Shown in pieces: positions 1 through 7,170 of a stretch of DNA of 8,256 nt. Below the pieces are notes generated by a model, which did not search any database, was not told the DNA's origin, and worked only from the letters and a program-made list of their open reading frames with translations. Positions within the stretch are counted from its first letter, which is position 1. The number at the start of each line of letters is the position of its first letter. The stretch lies in IMG/VR virus record IMGVR_UViG_2531839239_000027; one strand, 5' to 3'. Origin of the DNA: a virus (lineage: Duplodnaviria > Heunggongvirae > Uroviricota > Caudoviricetes). The translations under genes and the position numbers were made by a program.

Positions 1-1242
1 ATGGCGAGAAAAACACCCCCATTAACCACAGTACAGATCAAAGCAGCCAGACCAGCAGAAAAGGAATACACCCTACAGGACGGCGGAGGGCTTTTTCTCC
101 TGATCAAACCGTCCGGATCAAAACTCTGGAGATTTTCCTACTACCGACCATCGGACAAAAAAAGAATATTGCTGAGTTTTGGATCGCTTGATGATGTTTC
201 CCTGGCTGATGCCAGAAAACGCCGTAGCGAGTACAGGGCGTTAATTCGTGCCGGAACTGACCCGCAGGACCACGAGAGGCAAAAAAGAGAGACAGAGGCC
301 CGAAGACAAGGGAACACGTTCGAAAATGTGGCAACAGCATGGTACCAGGTGAAAATCAGCCAGAATCTGGCCCCCAATACGATTAAAGACATCTGGCGAT
401 CGCTGGAAAAATATGTATTCCCGTTCATCGGCAACACGCCAATAGACACCCTGACCGCTCGCAGGTTTGTTGAGGTGCTTACCCCCATCAAGGAACGTGG
501 CAACCTGGAAACGCTCAAGCGAGTTTTACAGCGTGTAAATGAGGTAATGGATTACGCCGCCAATAGTGGGATGATTGATGCCAATCCGGCTATGAATGTG
601 CGTAAGGCGTTCCCCTCCCCTGTAAAAAAACATATGCCAACAATCCGCCCCGAACAGCTGCCGGAGCTTATGCAGGCTTTATCAGTATCGGCAACAGAAC
701 GGCAGACCAGATTACTGATTGAATGGCAGTTACTGACCGTAACCCGTCCCGTTGAAGCATCGTCGGCACGCTGGGAAGAAATCGACATGGAGGCGCAACG
801 CTGGACCATACCCGCCGGACGCATGAAGATGCGCCGCGACCACGTTATCCCGCTTTGTGACCAGGCTATGGCAGTGCTGGAGGCTATGAAACCAATCAGC
901 CACCACCGCGATTATGTTTTCCCAAGTCTGAAAGACCCACGGCAGCCGATGAACAGCCAGACAGCAAACGCAGCATTACGACGCATGGGGTTCGCTGGCG
1001 TGCTGGTGTCTCATGGATTACGCGCCATATTCAGCACAGCAGCGAACGAGGAAGGATTCGAGCCGGACGTAATCGAGGCGGCACTTGCCCACGTCGACAC
1101 CAACGAAGTCAGACGGGCATACAACCGGAGCAACTACATAGAAAAACGCGTGGTGCTTATGCGCTGGTGGGGCGAATTTGTCGAGGCTGCGGCGACGGGC
1201 GTAACCCTCGCCAGTGGTAAAAGGGGTATCCGAGCCGTTTAG
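1..1242 (+). CDS. int: P4-type tyrosine integrase / site-specific recombinase
   Basis: 413-aa ORF starting at window position 1. N-terminus (LQDGGGLFLLIKPSGSKLWRFSYY...SLADARKRR) fits the arm-binding domain pattern of P4-family integrases. C-terminus has H-x-x-R (HGLRAIF) and the LAHV...RAYNRSNY tyrosine box of tyrosine recombinases. Its promoter and any att site lie outside the window. Confidence 0.9.
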   Translation: MARKTPPLTTVQIKAARPAEKEYTLQDGGGLFLLIKPSGSKLWRFSYYRPSDKKRILLSFGSLDDVSLADARKRRSEYRALIRAGTDPQDHERQKRETEARRQGNTFENVATAWYQVKISQNLAPNTIKDIWRSLEKYVFPFIGNTPIDTLTARRFVEVLTPIKERGNLETLKRVLQRVNEVMDYAANSGMIDANPAMNVRKAFPSPVKKHMPTIRPEQLPELMQALSVSATERQTRLLIEWQLLTVTRPVEASSARWEEIDMEAQRWTIPAGRMKMRRDHVIPLCDQAMAVLEAMKPISHHRDYVFPSLKDPRQPMNSQTANAALRRMGFAGVLVSHGLRAIFSTAANEEGFEPDVIEAALAHVDTNEVRRAYNRSNYIEKRVVLMRWWGEFVEAAATGVTLASGKRGIRAV

Positions 1243-1340: not shown

Positions 1341-1571
1341 ATGCAAACAAATTTCAGATGCAATTGCGACGGGCTGCAACTGGCCCTGATGGTTCAGCAT
1401 GAATTTTGGTCAACCTACGATCCGGAGGACAGAACGACGGCCCCATCAAAAAAACAGGTAGTAGATTTCCTGGTATCCCGTGGAGCTTCCAGAAATCTGG
1501 CTGTAAGTATTGATAAGGTTGTACGTCCGGCATCCATGAAGACCGGAGGCAGGCCCAAAAAATGGCGGTAA
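1341..1571 (+). CDS. Hypothetical small protein with a possible HTH-like segment; may instead be a non-coding transcript
   Basis: ORF-track frame 1320..1571 (TTG at 1320, first ATG at 1341). Neither start has a convincing Shine-Dalgarno; the GAGG at 1314-1317 is best placed for an out-of-frame 19-codon ORF at 1327. The unit is bounded by the TATAAT promoter and a strong terminator. Segment GASRNLAVSIDKVVR is HTH-like by eye only. Confidence 0.3.
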   Translation: MQTNFRCNCDGLQLALMVQHEFWSTYDPEDRTTAPSKKQVVDFLVSRGASRNLAVSIDKVVRPASMKTGGRPKKWR

Positions 1572-1581
1572 CAATCCTGAA

Positions 1582-1606
1582 AGCGGCAGAAATGCCGCTT
1601 TTTTTA
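1582..1606 (+). terminator. Rho-independent terminator
   Basis: Stem AGCGGCA (1582-1588), loop GAAA, stem TGCCGCT (1593-1599), followed by a T-run to 1605. Confidence 0.7.
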
Positions 1607-1634
1607 TAAATCCCTTTCAAATCATCAATATAAA

Positions 1635-1720
1635 AAACGGTGTATACCGTTTAAAAACGGTGAGTACTGTTTTTCCCTGCATCCGATGATTTACCGTATT
1701 TCTCACCGGAATACACCGGA
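1635..1720 (+). promoter_or_regulatory. Candidate operator cluster upstream of alpA: two tandem palindromes plus direct repeats
   Basis: AAACGGT-N4-ACCGTTT at 1635-1652 (perfect 7-bp arms) and AAACGGT-N4-ACTGTTT at 1655-1672 (6/7), centres 20 bp apart. Direct repeats CACCGGA at 1704-1710 and 1714-1720. Shine-Dalgarno GAGG at 1725-1728 for the 1739 ATG. No clean -35/-10 pair identified. Confidence 0.4.
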
Positions 1721-1738
1721 TTAATGAGGTAAATCACG

Positions 1739-1945
1739 ATGGAAGCAATCAAAAAAGTCATCTTTCGCCAGGAAGTAAAAAAACTTATCCATATTAAGGC
1801 AGACAGCACGCTGCAAAGCATGATCAACGCCGGAGAATTCCCGCAGGGTTTTCGTGTCGGTTTGCGCCGTCGCGGATGGTATGAGGAAGACGTAATCGCA
1901 TGGATGAAAGAACGCGAACAAGAAGCGCGCGGAACGACCGCTTAA
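1739..1945 (+). CDS. alpA: AlpA-family phage regulatory protein (excisionase/activator-like DNA-binding protein)
   Basis: 68-aa ORF; motif ...SMINAGEFPQGFRVGLRRRGWYEEDVIAWMKERE matches the AlpA-family pattern (FP.G.r.G.r..gW.e.dv..W). GAGG 10 nt upstream of the ATG. Position just after int is typical of P4-like and PICI elements. Confidence 0.85.
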   Translation: MEAIKKVIFRQEVKKLIHIKADSTLQSMINAGEFPQGFRVGLRRRGWYEEDVIAWMKEREQEARGTTA

Positions 1946-1970
1946 CATATATAGGGCAAATGATGAACAT

Positions 1971-1998
1971 AAAAAAAGCGGCCCCGAAATGGAGCCAC
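1971..1998 (-). terminator. Rho-independent terminator for minus-strand transcription
   Basis: Read on the minus strand: GUGGCUCC-AUUUC-GGGGCCGC (8-bp stem including two G-U pairs, 5-nt loop) followed by U7 (plus-strand A-run 1971-1977). Would stop transcripts from the RHH gene before they run antisense into alpA. Confidence 0.55.
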
Positions 1999-2066
1999 CT
2001 TTCTGAACAATTAACCCGCTGCGCCGTATGTGTCAACAATCATAAGCCTGGGCATGATAACCGCGA

Positions 2067-2270
2067 TCAGGCTGGTGGGCAATTATCTTGCTTGTTGGGG
2101 CCGTATTGTGCTGCCATTTTCATCCGTTCAGAACGTGAATATTTTTTTAGAAACTCATCAAGGACAAAAGCGCATGGTGCGAATCTTTCTGATTCATGCT
2201 CGAGCGCCATATTTTCGTGCTCTCTGTTCGTTTTTTGCGATGGTGTATTGGTTGATTCTTTATTGGTCAT
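2067..2270 (-). CDS. Hypothetical small protein (67 aa; alternative internal ATG at 2210 gives 47 aa); doubtful
   Basis: Only minus-strand ORF between the RHH gene stop (2328) and the minus-strand terminator (1971-1998), so it lies inside that transcript. Weak Shine-Dalgarno, lower-GC region, no recognisable motifs. Could be non-coding. Confidence 0.25.
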   Translation of the reverse strand: MTNKESTNTPSQKTNREHENMALEHESERFAPCAFVLDEFLKKYSRSERMKMAAQYGPNKQDNCPPA

Positions 2271-2327
2271 TGTGTGTACCTGTAAAGCAATGCGCCGTAG
2301 TACCTCACACCACGGCGCTGATAGTGA

Positions 2328-2633
2328 TTATTCTGATTCTTTGGCCTTGCGGCGCTGGAGTTCTTCACGTGCGACAGTGACGAGCTGCCCGATCTCCTCG
2401 GCGGCTTTGATTCCGAGTTTTTCCACCTGCGCCAGTGCATTGAGCGAAGAAATCAGGAGGTTTTCTCCGCTTCCTTCTGCCTGGCGGCGGGCGATTTCAC
2501 CGCGCATGGCGGTTACTATGAATCCGGCGTTGCTTTCACCGTCCAGTTTTACGGATTCCATGCCTTCAATAACATCATGCGGGATCCGAGCTGTCAGTGA
2601 TTGTGATTTTGCGTTTTTTGAACCTGTAGCCAT
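2328..2633 (-). CDS. Ribbon-helix-helix (Arc/CopG/MetJ-like) DNA-binding protein with C-terminal helical extension; putative repressor
   Basis: ORF-track frame 2328..2648 begins at TTG; the ATG at 2633-2631 with GAGAGG Shine-Dalgarno is the likelier start (101 aa). N-terminus KSQSLTARIPHDVIEGMESVKLDGESNAGFIVTAMRGEIARR has the beta-strand/helix/helix layout of RHH regulators. Divergent from the Icd-like-to-rep operon across an operator-rich region. Confidence 0.6.
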   Translation of the reverse strand: MATGSKNAKSQSLTARIPHDVIEGMESVKLDGESNAGFIVTAMRGEIARRQAEGSGENLLISSLNALAQVEKLGIKAAEEIGQLVTVAREELQRRKAKESE

Positions 2634-2654
2634 CTGTAATCCTCTCAATGAAAG

Positions 2655-2749
2655 TGTAAGACAATATACACATAAAAAGTCTTACATAAAAGCATTGACA
2701 TGTAAGCCACCTATAAATAAAGTTACTTACACCTTGTTAATGCAAGGTG
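2655..2749. promoter_or_regulatory. Divergent promoter/operator region: two TGTAAG...CTTACA palindromes, a sigma70-like promoter and a leader inverted repeat
   Basis: IR1 TGTAAGAC-N16-GTCTTACA (2655-2686). -35 TTGACA (2695-2700), 17-bp spacer, -10 TAAAGT (2718-2723), pointing rightward. IR2 TGTAAG-N19-CTTACA (2701-2731) overlaps the spacer and -10. IR3 CACCTTG-N6-CAAGGTG (2730-2749) sits at the predicted start site. A TATATT hexamer on the minus strand within IR1 could be the -10 for the RHH gene. Confidence 0.55.
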
Positions 2750-2829
2750 CAGAAACGACGAAACCCCGCACTGTAGGAGCAGTAACGGGGCTTCTAACCA
2801 CCAACGATAACGAGAGTATCGAGGTAGCT

Positions 2830-3030
2830 ATGAGAAATCATACCACACACCCGCAAGGGCGGGACTCGCACAACCTGAATAAATACATTTGGCGTTTTAT
2901 CGCCCTGAGCACTGCACAACCGCGCGTGATTACCATTGAGGCCACCAGCGAACAGGAAGCACGCCTGCAATCCCCGGCTGGCTGCGTGATGGTATTCGCT
3001 GCCCGTATTCGTCAGGGGGTAGGCTTATGA
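2830..3030 (+). CDS. Small protein resembling host cell-division inhibitor Icd-like proteins of P1/P4-type prophages
   Basis: 66 codons, the C-terminal part of the spurious long ORF 1900..3030. GAGG at 2821-2824, 5 nt before the ATG. Motif YIWRFIALS...TSEQEARLQ...VMVFAARIRQG matches my recollection of the Icd-like pattern (rF.f.a....A..E.aR...lAR.fvL.FAGR); from memory, not searched. Stop overlaps the next start (ATGA at 3027-3030). Confidence 0.45.
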   Translation: MRNHTTHPQGRDSHNLNKYIWRFIALSTAQPRVITIEATSEQEARLQSPAGCVMVFAARIRQGVGL

Positions 3031-3920: not shown

Positions 3921-4220
3921 ATGAAACTTAAATATTCTGGCTTAACTGCCAGTGGCAACACTCACCCTAAATTTACGCGCGGTGATATTTACCGCGACCA
4001 GTACGGCGGCACGGTAATGATTAAGGGCGTGGCGGGACGGTGCGTAACTTACCGCCGTGAAGGTTACGAATATGATTGCGTGATGCCTGTTTATCAGTTC
4101 CGGCGTGATTTTTCTCTGGTACAGACCGCGCCGCATAACGTGCCCACCAGCAACGCCAGGGCACGGGCAAACATCCAGAAGCTGAAAACCATGATTAACG
4201 GATTCAGGGGCAAGAAATGA
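3921..4220 (+). CDS. Hypothetical protein (99 aa, basic, Gly/Tyr/Arg-rich)
   Basis: GGAG at 3906-3909; stop overlaps the rep start (ATGA at 4217-4220). No recognisable motif. Confidence 0.5.
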   Translation: MKLKYSGLTASGNTHPKFTRGDIYRDQYGGTVMIKGVAGRCVTYRREGYEYDCVMPVYQFRRDFSLVQTAPHNVPTSNARARANIQKLKTMINGFRGKK

Positions 4221-5617
4221 AAAGCGCACCGAACTTAAAAAAACAGCCTTACGACAAGATGACCGAAGTCATCATTTTTGCGGGTAGTGATGCGTGGGCA
4301 CATGCGAAACAGTGGCAGGAACAGGACGGGCGACTGGCTGGCGATAATGTGCCTCCCGTTGTGCTGGCTGATGATCAACTGGATGAACTGGCAGACCTGA
4401 GAATCATCGACGAGGGGCGCTATTGTGTCCGGCTGTACAAGGCAGGCCACATCAGGCCATCAAATATTAATGCCATTGCGCACAAGCTGGCGGCGGCGGG
4501 TGTAACTGATGCGAATTATTACCCCGAAGGGATGCACAGCCAGAAGCGGGAGAACTGGCGCGAATATCTGGAACGGGAGCGGGGGAAAAAGCCAGGGGAA
4601 GAAAAACACCACCAGCGAAAAACCACGCTACCAATGAGCGTGGGATCTGCCGGATACGACACACAACTTGATTACGTGGTTAAGGGGATTATTCCGGCGG
4701 TATCGCTGTGCAGCATATACGGGGCGAGCGGTTCATATAAATCGTTCCTTGCGGGTTCGTGGGCGTGTCACGTTTCCACGGGCCGCCAGTGGGGAGGCCG
4801 CAGGGTGGCGCATGGCGCTGTTCTCTATGTGGTTGGTGAAGGCGGTATCGGCGTTCCGCGTCGTGTAAAAGCCTGGGAGGTTGTGCACGGTGAGCAGGTG
4901 AAAAATCTGTATCTGGTAAACCGTCCCATCTTTCCGGCTGCCCCGCTTGATGTTGAGGAAATGGTTATCGCTGCCCGTCAGGTGGAACGGGAAACGGGTA
5001 AACCGGTTCGAATGATTATTCTGGATACGCTGGCGCGCTGCTTTGGCGGCAATGATGAAAATGATTCCCGTGATATGGGGGCGTTTATCCGTGGGTGTGA
5101 CGAACTGAAACGGCGCACAGGGGCAACGGTGCTGGTGGTTCACCATTCCGGCAAGGATGAAACAAAGGGGGCGCGTGGTTCCAGTGCATTTCGTGCATCA
5201 CTGGACGCCGAATACCGGATACGCAGGGAGGACGCAGGCAGCGAAGCGCTGGTTATCTCATGTACCAAAATGAAGGACGCGGAGGAACTCAAAGAAGCAG
5301 CATATGACTTACGCGTGGTGGAGCTTTTTACCGACGCTGACGGGGAGTTAATCACGTCGCTGGTGGTGGTGGATAAGCCGCGCCCTCCCGTTGAACTGGA
5401 GCGCATCGAGGAGGCAGGGAACAAGACGGAGAATCACGCCGCGCTATGGCAGTGCATCAGAACACGAACAGCACACGGGGAGGCGTGCACTATCGCCCTT
5501 CTCCGCGACGATATGAAAAAGCTGGGGTATGAGATGAAGCACTTCCGGCGCTGGCTGTACAAGCTGGAAAATGATGGCGTAATCGTTATTGACGGTGATG
5601 ACGTGCGCCCGCTGTAA
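4217..5617 (+). CDS. rep: Replication protein: RepA/DnaB-like RecA-fold ATPase (AAA_25-type helicase) with an N-terminal domain of unknown function
   Basis: 466 aa. P-loop region YGASGSYKS, Walker B-like MIILDTLARCF, and LVVHHSGKDETKGARGSSAF matching the RepA-family sensor pattern (vhH.gK....RGssa). Followed immediately by an iteron array. AGGGG Shine-Dalgarno at 4204-4209. Confidence 0.8.
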   Translation: MKSAPNLKKQPYDKMTEVIIFAGSDAWAHAKQWQEQDGRLAGDNVPPVVLADDQLDELADLRIIDEGRYCVRLYKAGHIRPSNINAIAHKLAAAGVTDANYYPEGMHSQKRENWREYLERERGKKPGEEKHHQRKTTLPMSVGSAGYDTQLDYVVKGIIPAVSLCSIYGASGSYKSFLAGSWACHVSTGRQWGGRRVAHGAVLYVVGEGGIGVPRRVKAWEVVHGEQVKNLYLVNRPIFPAAPLDVEEMVIAARQVERETGKPVRMIILDTLARCFGGNDENDSRDMGAFIRGCDELKRRTGATVLVVHHSGKDETKGARGSSAFRASLDAEYRIRREDAGSEALVISCTKMKDAEELKEAAYDLRVVELFTDADGELITSLVVVDKPRPPVELERIEEAGNKTENHAALWQCIRTRTAHGEACTIALLRDDMKKLGYEMKHFRRWLYKLENDGVIVIDGDDVRPL

Positions 5618-5819
5618 AAAGTGGGGAGTAAAAGTGGGGGGAGTGGGGAATTTAACAAAATTGAAACATAATTACCCACTTTCCCACCTGTATATACCCA
5701 AAAAAGTGGGGAGTAAAAAACATATTGAAAAACATAACGTTAGAATCACAAAAAAAAGAGGTGGGGAGACGGTGGGTAATTTCAAAAAGTGGGGAGCAAA
5801 AGTGGGGAGTAGTGGGGAA
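5618..5819. repeat. Iteron array flanking an AT-rich core; putative origin of replication
   Basis: At least 9 direct copies of GTGGGGAG/GTGGGGAA/GTGGGTA at approximately 5621, 5634, 5643, 5706, 5761, 5772, 5789, 5802 and 5812. Inverted copies at 5674-5689 (ACCCACTTTCCCACC). A-rich core 5651-5756 with repeated ATTGAAA(AA)CATAA at about 5659 and 5724. Confidence 0.7.
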
Positions 5820-6064
5820 TGAACAGAAAAACCAGAGATAAGACAGCGCCAAAATATAAAGCGTTAGACATGACAGAGCTTTCCTTAAAGGTGGCAATCA
5901 GAACGATAGACCGCCACGCGGGGGAAGGATACGCGAAGGAGCATCCCGAACTGATAAGCGCATTCATGACCACAGCGGCGGCAAACTTTGCCACGCTGAC
6001 AGAACGGGAGATTGCCGAAGCGGAACAGGTAACAACCATCAACGTTAAAAGCGCTGGAGAATAA
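5819..6064 (+). CDS. Hypothetical protein (81 aa; alternative start at ATG 5870 gives 64 aa)
   Basis: ORF begins inside the last iteron and ends 19 nt before a strong terminator. GGGGAG 9 nt upstream of the 5819 ATG. No recognised motif. Confidence 0.4.
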   Translation: MNRKTRDKTAPKYKALDMTELSLKVAIRTIDRHAGEGYAKEHPELISAFMTTAAANFATLTEREIAEAEQVTTINVKSAGE

Positions 6065-6554: not shown

Positions 6555-6640
6555 CAGGGGGGGAGTGTTCCGGCCGGAAAGTCGATCGCCCTGGACACCG
6601 CCCCCAGTCTCATTCATAGAAAATTTTGCTTTTCAAAAAA

Positions 6641-6660
6641 GTTACACGAAAAGTTACACC
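6641..6660 (+). repeat. Two direct GTTACAC(C) repeats 12 bp apart, immediately upstream of terS
   Basis: GTTACAC at 6641-6647 and GTTACACC at 6653-6660, each preceded by an A-run. Same motif and 12-bp spacing as the array inside terS. Confidence 0.5.
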
Positions 6661-6681: not shown

Positions 6682-7170
6682 ATGGCATTAACGACCAAAA
6701 AAAAGCGGTTTGCTGATGCGTTATCAAAGGGCACAAATCCAACGGAAGCCGCGATACATGCGGGATACAGCGAAAAGACTGCAAGGGTTAAAGGCTGGCA
6801 GCTATCCAATGATCCGGAGGTGAAAAAGTATCTTAAGGCTGTAACTTCTGATGTAACTTTTCAGGTTACAAAACCGAAAAAAGTTACAAAGAAAGTTACC
6901 GAAAAAGTTACACCGGAACGGGCATCAATTAACACCATTGAGATGATGGATAACGGCCTACCCGACCCCATCAAAGCAATGGGCAGGATACTGATTGACA
7001 ACATGGACACAGATCCAAAACTGGCTTTAGATGCCGCGTTTAAGCTGGCCCAGTTCACCCACCGCAAGATCGGCAGCATTGGGAAAAAAGAGGTTAAAAA
7101 ACTCAATGCCGCTAATGTCTCCTCAAATCGGTTCCCCATCCCTAAGCCACCAACTGGCTTAAAACACTGA
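6682..7170 (+). CDS. terS: Phage terminase small subunit (Terminase_2/P27-like N-terminal HTH)
   Basis: N-terminus MALTTKKKRFADALSKGTNPTEAAIHAGYSEKTARVKGWQLSNDPEVKKYL matches the TerS pattern (KQ.lF...Y...GNaT.AAi.AGYS.KTA...G..Ll.n..V..yi). ORF-track frame opens at 6544, but the ATG at 6682 with GAGG at 6671-6674 is the likely start. 162 aa from that start. Confidence 0.75.
   Translation: MALTTKKKRFADALSKGTNPTEAAIHAGYSEKTARVKGWQLSNDPEVKKYLKAVTSDVTFQVTKPKKVTKKVTEKVTPERASINTIEMMDNGLPDPIKAMGRILIDNMDTDPKLALDAAFKLAQFTHRKIGSIGKKEVKKLNAANVSSNRFPIPKPPTGLKH
6841..6914 (+). repeat. 12-bp-periodic array of GTTAC/GTAAC pentamers inside terS
   Basis: GTAAC at 6841 and 6853; GTTACA at 6865; GTTACA at 6883; GTTACC at 6895; GTTACACC at 6907. 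Spacings of 12 bp except one 18-bp gap. Encodes the low-complexity stretch VTSDVTFQVTKPKKVTKKVTEKVT. Confidence 0.55.

Follow-up and report, generated by a model that had tools for sequence, protein, structure and literature searches.

[quoted passage not shown] In P4, the Vis protein binds attP between int and the core and reportedly also regulates PLL and Psid; unlike the AlpA proteins of PICIs, which are reported to be self-activating, P4 Vis represses its own promoter. The AlpA alleles of PICIs are remotely related to Vis (PMC6092414). In EcCICFT073, AlpA activates its own promoter, PalpA, on which AlpA and not Int acts, and overexpression of AlpA results in int-dependent excision and replication of the PICI (PMC6092414). 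The signal that raises alpA expression is provided by helper phages and not by the SOS response (PMC6092414). Similarly, excision of EcCIMP1 depends on its alpA, which also increases the activity of its own reporter (PMC11773190), and in both islands alpA is helper-induced, positively autoregulated and required for excision and transfer (PMC6092414; PMC11773190). The PLL promoter of P4 is in turn switched on by the Cox protein of the helper (PMC3936717).

Recombination directionality factors (RDFs) typically bind tandem sites placed one helical turn apart, at att sites as well as at promoters (PMC7498355; PMC3936717). The Apl protein of 186 and the Cox protein of P2, small proteins of the winged helix-turn-helix or helix-turn-helix type, occupy arrays of short sites 10-11 bp apart at att and at a promoter, and these sites can face both ways and are bound cooperatively and with relaxed specificity (PMC7498355; PMC3936717). 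In the literature searched, neither a mapped AlpA binding site nor an AlpA binding experiment was found for any PICI.

Here, we analyzed the region preceding alpA in a stretch of 8256 bases (hereafter the window), which is a PICI of the Gram-negative type, an E. coli phage satellite. Its layout comprises int, alpA, a replication module with an iteron origin, packaging and capsid genes and a specific att site, and all island genes in the 8256 bases lie on the + strand. The replication module contains a RepA-type helicase gene followed by AAAGTGGGGAG iterons, and the window also has genes for a DUF4222 protein and a small terminase (both by Pfam) and for a major capsid protein (RefSeq annotation). 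Bases 1-2308 of the window are identical to E. coli E2863, in which the island (∼9.5 kb) is located between tRNA-Pro (proL) and yejO, a site that is empty in K-12; in one variant, proM is used instead of proL. Since the window begins at the int ATG, attL lies just outside of it, and in E2863 int is found 218 bp downstream of tRNA-Pro. At a DNA identity of at least ∼87%, the alpA module was found in 276 of the 5426 complete E. coli genomes; this number rose to 374 when 60-80% matches were included (that is, 5-7% of complete E. coli genomes), and the module was chromosomal in every case. The element is common in EHEC-type lineages.

The features of the alpA region are compiled in the table. As the original prediction had described them, two AAACGGT-N4-AC(C/T)GTTT palindromes, separated by 20 bp from centre to centre, and two ACCG-containing direct repeats 10 bp apart are present between an upstream terminator and the alpA start codon. 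The palindromes lie in two directly repeated units of 20 bp each (1633-1652 and 1653-1672), which share 85% identity. A search for AAACGGTNNNNACYGTTT with up to 2 mismatches detected no further copies in the 8256-base window beyond these two, a match count that was reached in 0 of 200 dinucleotide-preserving shuffles (shuffle mean 0.11).

Features of the alpA region and matches of the attL-derived weight matrix (window coordinates)
Feature	Position	Strand	Remarks
int, P4-type tyrosine integrase gene	1-1242	+	Pfam Arm-DNA-bind_3, Phage_int_M, Phage_integrase
Small hypothetical gene	1341-1571	+	76 aa as annotated; RefSeq WP_012817901.1
Intrinsic terminator	1580-1606	+	9-bp perfect arms 1580-1588/1593-1601, then seven T
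Palindrome 1	1635-1652		AAACGGT-GTAT-ACCGTTT; perfect 7-nt arms; less constrained unit
Palindrome 2	1655-1672		AAACGGT-GAGT-ACTGTTT; one arm mismatch; half-sites invariant, 4-bp spacer variable
Variable-sequence spacer	1673-1689		17 bp, near-constant length (one variant 1 bp shorter)
TTTACCGTATTT element	1690-1701	+	ACCG half-site; also 5' arm of predicted RBS-occluding stem
Two head-to-tail CACCGGA repeats	1704-1723	+	10 bp apart; CACCGGAATA at 1704-1713, CACCGGATTA at 1714-1723; predicted AlpA (excision-factor type) sites
Shine-Dalgarno of alpA	1726-1730	+	GAGGT, read from sequence, 8 nt before ATG
alpA	1739-1945	+	68-aa winged helix-turn-helix protein; weak Pfam Phage_AlpA and HTH_17
RepA-type AAA_25 helicase gene	4217-5617	+	Pfam; AAAGTGGGGAG iterons after gene
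Matrix match, first direct repeat	1702	+	rank 1
Matrix match, variable spacer	1679	-	rank 9; ATCATCGGATGC
Matrix match, palindrome 2 left half	1653-1664	-	rank 13; CTCACCGTTTTT
Matrix match, second direct repeat	1712	+	rank 16
Matrix match, TTTACCGTATTT	1690	+	rank 61
Matrix match, palindrome 1 left half	1633	-	rank 210

Closer comparison of the two kinds of repeats indicated that they are related. The direct repeats carry CACCG cores at 1704-1708 and 1714-1718, and the inverted core, CGGTG, is found in the palindromes at 1638-1642 and 1658-1662. The left halves of both palindromes correspond to the direct repeats in inverted orientation, flanks included (ATACACCG and CTCACCG), and we accordingly treat the repeats as one motif family with a CACCG/ACCG core rather than as two. 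Within the leader, three or four putative sites face one way, as palindrome left halves, and three face the other way (TTTACCG and the two CACCGGA), with a spacing of roughly one helical turn.

The terminator, whose strength had been anticipated, yielded an RNA fold of -15.4 kcal/mol (z = -4.95); a consensus scan had missed it for the sole reason that its maximal-stem rule counts some of the T residues as stem. It is predicted to insulate alpA from int/orf read-through and is part of the upstream module. Downstream of it, the expected lack of clean promoter hexamers was borne out, as no sigma-70 promoter with at least 8 of 12 matches was detected on the + strand within 1570-1738, the best candidates reaching 7 of 12. 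A promoter-like match on the minus strand (1655-1627, 9 of 12) was disregarded because the variants do not conserve it. Likewise in agreement with the original prediction, no LexA box (CTGT-N8-ACAG, up to 1 mismatch) matched in 1600-1740, and Rfam covariance models gave no match with E up to 1 in or near the same interval. Inspection of the leader by eye showed no lambda CII site (TTGC-N6-TTGC) and no P2 Ogr/Delta site (TGT-N12-ACA), the latter being also used by P4 late promoters. A likeness to the lambda CI/Cro operator (TATCACCGC) was rejected because, as judged by eye, the CACCG core points the other way with respect to the centre of the dyad, and a likeness to an SlmA site (GTGAGTACT, in the spacer of palindrome 2) was ruled out, this spacer being variable among variants.

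The conservation of the leader was evaluated using 33 related loci (14 distinct sequences) and three further AlpA variants with 75-79% protein identity, yielding leader alignments of 14 and 7 distinct variants, for which TTTACCGTATTT served as anchor (no locus of the 33 scanned being without TTTACCGTATTT). These alignments placed a mosaic junction at the terminator. Diverged variants differ upstream of ∼1625, where they have another small gene (61 aa, in place of the 1341-1571 gene, which is itself without a Pfam match) and another terminator sequence at the same position, whereas from ∼1628 to the alpA start codon the sequence is recognisably kept. This block is co-inherited with alpA while the adjacent upstream DNA is swapped. 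Among variants keeping the leader, int and alpA are the only island genes that are also kept, the small gene at 1341-1571 and a ribbon-helix-helix gene at 2328-2636 being replaceable. The products of both had been considered as island-encoded repressors acting on the leader and were discarded, their genes being absent from leader-keeping variants; moreover, the ribbon-helix-helix gene carries operators of its own (TGTAAGAC/GTCTTACA).

Within the conserved block, no variation was seen in the arms of palindrome 2, in the anchor TTTACCGTATTT itself, in the first CACCGGA or, within the second repeat, in CCGGA, and the 4-bp dyad centres and the 17-bp stretch 1673-1689 vary freely. In the present sequence, the latter stretch overlaps an attL-like minus-strand site (ATCATCGGATGC, 1679-1690), which diverged variants do not have. 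The left arm of palindrome 1 reads ACGGT, ACAGT, ACTGT, ACGTT or ACGAT among variants, and one allele (L020) shows an exact deletion of one 20-bp dyad unit, namely palindrome 1, while another (L013) has gained a third 10-bp CACCGGAATA unit via duplication. Fixed half-sites, variable spacers and unit-sized indels of 10 bp or 20 bp have the look of modular protein-binding sites. Conservation alone is nevertheless weak evidence, because all compared sequences derive from E. coli and close relatives and their similarity reflects shared ancestry in part. Species-representative genomes, scanned once with AlpA and once with the pattern of two palindromes in tandem, gave no match, and no relatives from beyond E. 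coli-type elements were recovered.

Evidence for the identity of the binding protein comes from the other end of int. The attL spacer of E2863 (chromosome positions 2736704-2736921), which comprises the 218 bp between tRNA-Pro and int, consists of the core followed by CACCGGATAC, CACCGGAAAT and CACCGAATAA, arranged head-to-tail 10 bp apart, a hairpin, then CACCGAACAT, CACCGGATTT and AGCCGGATTT, and finally four copies of TAGTTATACG just before int. Matches to CACCG[GA]A in this spacer start at positions 12548, 12558, 12568, 12632 and 12642 of the E2863 locus and are phased at 10 bp. Over the 28.7 kb of this locus, 15 copies of CACCG[GA]A were counted, five of which fall in the 218-bp attL spacer and two in the alpA leader, and the Poisson probability for the clustering of these seven copies is 3e-11. 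The same short motif is therefore phased in an att arm and also, at window positions 1704 and 1714, in a promoter region, as is the case for the operators of dual-role RDFs.

In contrast to this motif, which of the two attP arms occupies only the int-proximal one, between the core and the TAGTTATACG copies, TAGTTATACG is distributed over both attP arms. Only six copies of it are present in the 28.7-kb locus, four in attL (two direct, two inverted) and two in the attR arm, where the pair lies ∼70 bp from the attR core. This distribution is the signature of integrase arm-type sites, which leaves the CACCGGA set in a position typical of excision-factor sites.

As an independent test of the relationship between attL and the leader, a weight matrix was constructed from the five attL sites only, all of which lie outside the window, and scanned over ∼16,500 window positions. 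Four of the top 16 positions were located inside the 132-bp interval (see table), for ∼0.24 expected (P ∼1e-4, Poisson arithmetic), the best-scoring position of the entire window being the first direct repeat. The palindromic half-sites (CACCGTTTT, TACCGTTT) differ from the attL and direct-repeat form CACCGGAWW after the CACCG core, as the palindrome arms continue with TTTT rather than GAWW. Given this difference and the low rank of the palindrome 1 left half, the palindromes could belong to another protein, an alternative that is weighed below.

The island's own candidate for a protein acting at both places is AlpA. The alpA product is the PICI master activator and likely a recombination directionality factor. 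By profile score it is a sub-threshold, divergent member of the Phage_AlpA family, as the curated thresholds were reached neither for Phage_AlpA (PF05930; 17.8 bits versus a cut-off of 21, E = 0.003) nor for HTH_17 (17.3 bits versus 27), and RefSeq labels it both as an 'AlpA family' and as a 'helix-turn-helix' regulator. Its AlphaFold model (mean pLDDT 79.6) is a three-helix winged helix with the excisionase-type winged helix-turn-helix fold. Among solved structures it matched best 8c3t, the GIsul2 excisionase, whose deposited name is 'AlpA family phage regulatory protein' (TM score 0.75 query-normalised or 0.88 target-normalised, rmsd 1.2 A). MerR DNA-binding domains, BldC, RdfS and Pukovnik Xis ranked next; the Foldseek E-values are weak (0.04 or above) because the domain is small. 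Compared against phage genomes, AlpA gave just weak matches to Burkholderia and Ralstonia excisionases. The Pseudomonas aeruginosa AlpA antiterminator, which reads a 6-bp element between -35 and -10 (PMC9371919), was set aside as a model, since it shares the name but is a larger, Q-like protein, compared with 68 aa here.

Variation in AlpA was also compared with variation in the sites. In close AlpA variants collected by homology search, the helix-turn-helix region and the sites are both invariant. In the more diverged AlpA alleles of L003 and L004, residues of the recognition helix and the wing are replaced (T24S, S27D, R45V), but the leader sites of these alleles are almost the same. The attL sites of diverged variants become ATCGG/GCCGG forms while the leader sites hardly differ, so that binding of AlpA to both would need a relaxed specificity of the kind that is typical of excision factors.

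On balance, we favour the interpretation that 1628-1738 is the alpA promoter/leader operator and that the protein occupying its CACCG/ACCG array, in a cooperative manner, is most likely AlpA itself. The motif shared with attL points to the island's own excision factor as the binding protein; most likely it is AlpA, rather than Int or an outside factor, that would recognize the array, and all seven sites would be its own. With AlpA as binder, the sites would implement AlpA feedback rather than reception of the helper-phage signal, and by a similarly slight preference we predict AlpA to serve, like Apl, Cox and Vis, both as a directionality factor and as a regulator, operating as a feedback device and not as the helper trigger. 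The original prediction had gone further in proposing that whatever binds here likely sets the induction trigger. Its reading of the region as a cis-regulatory block for alpA is upheld by the conservation and co-inheritance described above, and its premise that AlpA gates excision and induction in related elements agrees with what is published for PICIs (PMC6092414; PMC11773190). The proposal about the trigger fares less well, as the presence of the same motif in the attL arm repeats points to AlpA and hence to feedback. The primary trigger could act through the palindromes, but the analysis found nothing in support of this.

A sequence of events can be envisaged on this basis. Basal alpA expression would be low, as read from the sequence, with the terminator stopping int read-through and a consensus promoter being absent. 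A helper-phage cue would then lift alpA expression, as published for other PICIs, after which, we infer, AlpA would occupy its own leader and exert feedback on its own expression. A positive sign of this feedback has been demonstrated for EcCICFT073 and EcCIMP1, which carry other alleles than this one; the direct repeats are located 16-35 bp before the ATG, a position so close to the start codon that it would suit repression as well as activation. Finally, AlpA would also be placed on attL, as the shared motif suggests, where it would direct Int-mediated excision and thereby couple the switch to excision.

Several other explanations were considered. We consider it rather unlikely that only the CACCGGA repeats are AlpA sites and that the 18-bp palindromes are the operators of another dimeric regulator, which would be the real induction input; a helper-phage activator, the target of an anti-repressor or a host factor would be candidates for this role. 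The 7-N4-7 dyads, with their variable centres and invariant arms, do resemble classical dimer operators, they are found in the leader alone and are absent from attL, and an activator would be needed because a sigma-70 promoter is absent. Helper phages are indeed known to switch on alpA (PMC6092414), and a precedent exists in P2 Cox, whose binding site precedes P4 PLL and which activates transcription of the operon headed by vis, the AlpA homologue (PMC3936717). Assuming a start near 1705, the centre of palindrome 2 (1663.5) would be placed at the class II position -41.5 and palindrome 1 at -61.5, with the -10 window on TACCGT (1692-1697), and TTTTCC-15-TACCGT, which matches in 6 of 12 positions and keeps two key -10 bases, is among the best weak promoter candidates; this transcription-start geometry is, however, a guess. 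Moreover, the left arms of the palindromes have the CACCG core and flanks in common with the direct repeats and attL, which is unexpected for an unrelated protein, and palindrome 1 is variable and lost in some natural variants. The binder would also have to come from outside the island, because only int and alpA are conserved alongside the block, yet a palindrome scan of viral contigs returned single chance-level matches and members of the same PICI family, and no phage with multiple copies. In one unrelated viral contig (L140), an iteron array happens to contain the palindrome motif.

A more specific form of this explanation, in which the dyads are the docking site of a PICI-activating helper-phage factor that binds at class I and class II positions of a promoter without a -35 element, is in our view improbable. 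Were it true, transcripts starting near 1705 would escape the fold-back that keeps read-through alpA mRNA untranslated, and the leader would integrate the terminator, the RNA fold-back and an external activator, with AlpA feedback added via CACCGGA.

The fold-back just mentioned is part of an explanation at the RNA level, according to which the repeats act mainly as RNA. In this case, hairpin A (1633-1674), which precedes a U run, would work as an attenuator or an additional terminator, and hairpin B (1687-1695 with 1728-1736, within stem arms extending over 1687-1700 and 1723-1736) would hide the ribosome-binding site, leaving int read-through transcripts untranslated. Such fold-back inhibition would operate as in IS10, the message being translatable only if the transcript starts downstream of 1695. 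Predicted folds are strong, with -42.8 kcal/mol for the leader (z = -5.95 versus shuffles) and -16.1 and -20.4 kcal/mol for hairpins A and B alone, and the Shine-Dalgarno is paired in the minimum-energy fold of 9/9 distinct leaders (z -2.3 to -4.3), including that of L038, in which the changed 3' arm pairs with a different upstream partner, but such z-scores do not discriminate because any tandem palindrome predicts strong hairpins. With regard to covariation, an A-U pair of stem B is replaced by U-A in one compensatory event, and one wobble occurs. This covariation is thin, as it amounts to one event and is accompanied by one uncompensated U-U mismatch (L041), and the outer arm of hairpin A shows only uncompensated changes. 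In addition, a function at the RNA level leaves unexplained why the same heptamer is phased in attL, and it is not matched by any Rfam family. As the main function of the repeats, we consider it doubtful; a fold-back block to translation is nonetheless plausible from the predicted structures and would be compatible with, rather than exclusive of, an operator bound by AlpA.

Finally, the CACCGGA repeats are very improbable as integrase arm-type sites whose leader copies would let Int regulate alpA: although Int has an arm-binding domain and the repeats lie in attL near the core, the separate repeat TAGTTATACG carries the arm-site signature on both attP arms and occurs nowhere else in the locus, CACCGGA is limited to one arm, its 10-bp head-to-tail phasing is a hallmark of excision factors (PMC7498355), and in EcCICFT073 AlpA and not Int acts on PalpA (PMC6092414).

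The preferred interpretation, an AlpA operator, can be compared with the systems introduced above. As for Apl and Cox, a single short motif, 10-bp phased in attL, is present again in the alpA leader, where it faces both ways. Apl and Cox act in a complete phage, whose lysogenic and lytic promoters they repress, whereas AlpA is a member of another sequence family (Phage_AlpA/HTH_17), is satellite-borne and, in PICIs, is reported to be self-activating; furthermore, part of the array described here consists of two 18-bp dyads and not of the usual head-to-tail sites. The gene order is like that of P4 Vis/PLL, in that int is followed by a small AlpA-family gene heading an operon (leftward in P4). 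Lambda Xis is not known to have an operator in front of its own gene, and what sets the present locus apart is that the array occurs once more, in the leader of alpA. The copy at attL, in contrast, is arranged like the sites of KplE1 TorI and lambda Xis, which are head-to-tail, one helical turn apart and located between the core and the Int arm sites (PMC7498355).

EcCICFT073 and EcCIMP1 are elements of the same type with the same gene order, alpA being located downstream of int. The int-alpA spacer of EcCICFT073 also contains 10-bp-phased repeats, but these are ACAACG (five) and GACACAA (two) and not CACCG; its AlpA is 29% identical to the present one, and its integration site differs from tRNA-Pro. 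Related TTGTT repeats are found near the att sites of EcCICFT073, the CFT073 att region being more complicated. A different AlpA thus goes along with different repeats, indicating that the repeat changes with the AlpA/Int module.

Overall, the putative AlpA sites of the leader most likely represent a previously unmapped instance of an ordinary, well-known design of excision proteins. In the literature searched, the switching of Gram-negative PICIs is described only as a rise of alpA expression followed by feedback of AlpA on itself, and a predicted AlpA box, with a CACCG core and ∼10-bp phasing, in both the alpA leader and attL is a concrete and testable proposal. Such a box would explain how one protein of 68 aa couples the transcriptional switch with excision, and it sets the probable feedback sequences apart from the remainder of the leader, chiefly palindrome 2 and the promoter-less spacer, that could receive the helper signal. 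Comparing the attL spacer with the int-alpA spacer, for which EcCICFT073 offers a parallel pattern with a different motif, could moreover predict the sites of other AlpA alleles.

Two of the related loci that carry the alpA module differ naturally in how many copies of the leader repeats they have: in L013 a 10-bp duplication in the alpA leader generates three CACCGGAATA units, and in L020 a precise 20-bp deletion has removed one dyad. Both are thus copy-number alleles. AAAC-GT/AC-GTTT dyads occur as well in L140, a viral contig from the environment that is unrelated; they fall within its 30-bp iteron array (GGAAACAGTATAAACGGTTTACACCATTTC), and the match appears to be coincidental and not to mark a relative.

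In E. coli E2863, both ends of the island lie outside the window, and their layout in the locus L001 predicts the attP architecture of the element. TAGTTATACG is present in four copies adjoining int and in two copies in the right arm, a distribution suggesting that these are Int arm-type sites. Between the tRNA core and the TAGTTATACG sites of attL lie five phased CACCG[GA]A repeats, together with a terminator-like hairpin. The attR junction reads CTCTCGTGC joined to AAAAATCCC, and CGACC of the empty K-12 site is missing from it. The related locus L038 holds a variant of the same alpA module (AlpA 75% identical) whose integration site is another tRNA-Pro, the one with anticodon tgg in the argX-hisR-leuT-proM cluster; in its attL the core-proximal repeats are CATCGGTAA, and its arm repeats are TAGCTATACG. 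The prototype Gram-negative PICI, EcCICFT073, differs in that its int-alpA interval contains distinct repeats in 10-bp phase (ACAACG, five copies; GACACAA, two copies), and its two island ends share a duplicated segment of ∼60 bp with TTGTT repeats and two copies of GTGTAGTTAAT.

Coordinates of the features discussed
Feature	Location	Context
attL of island	L001 12541-12758	E. coli E2863, outside window
attR of island	L001 21960-22060	E. coli E2863, outside window
Repeats and duplications	L007 7188-7247, 7431-7475, 5838-5910; L006 4040-4130	EcCICFT073
Duplication in alpA leader	L013, about 1385-1415	
Deletion in alpA leader	L020, about 1620-1640	
alpA module variant	L038 444-730	
Iteron array	L140 1170-1330	environmental viral contig
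Iteron region	window 5615-5830	directly 3' of RepA-type helicase gene
AAAGTTAC(A/C) repeats	window 6635-6660, 6837-6918	within small-terminase gene and upstream of it
Mosaic segment	window 1946-2830	versus L001 14704-16266 and L003-L005
Divergent control region	window 2651-2735	between leftward ribbon-helix-helix-like gene (2328-2636) and rightward operon
Sigma-70 promoter	window 2695-2723	

Further repeats were found within the window. The iteron region, with at least five direct copies of AAAGTGGGGAG and one inverted copy, CCCACTTT, is probably the replication origin of the island. The AAAGTTAC(A/C) repeats, occurring in both direct and inverted orientation, may form a pac site for packaging or be repeats to which TerS binds.

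The DNA separating alpA from the replication genes is strongly mosaic. The window parts from the E2863 sequence beyond base 2308; in other variants SWIM zinc-finger, Ash, Icd-like or pRha-type genes are found in this segment, and from some the leftward genes are entirely absent. The ribbon-helix-helix-like gene gave no Pfam hit. The adjoining divergent control region combines inverted repeats (TGTAAGAC/GTCTTACA) with a good sigma-70 promoter (TTGACA-17-TAAAGT), and looks like a repressor/operator module distinct from alpA, in a type of element for which, it is said, no master repressor is known.
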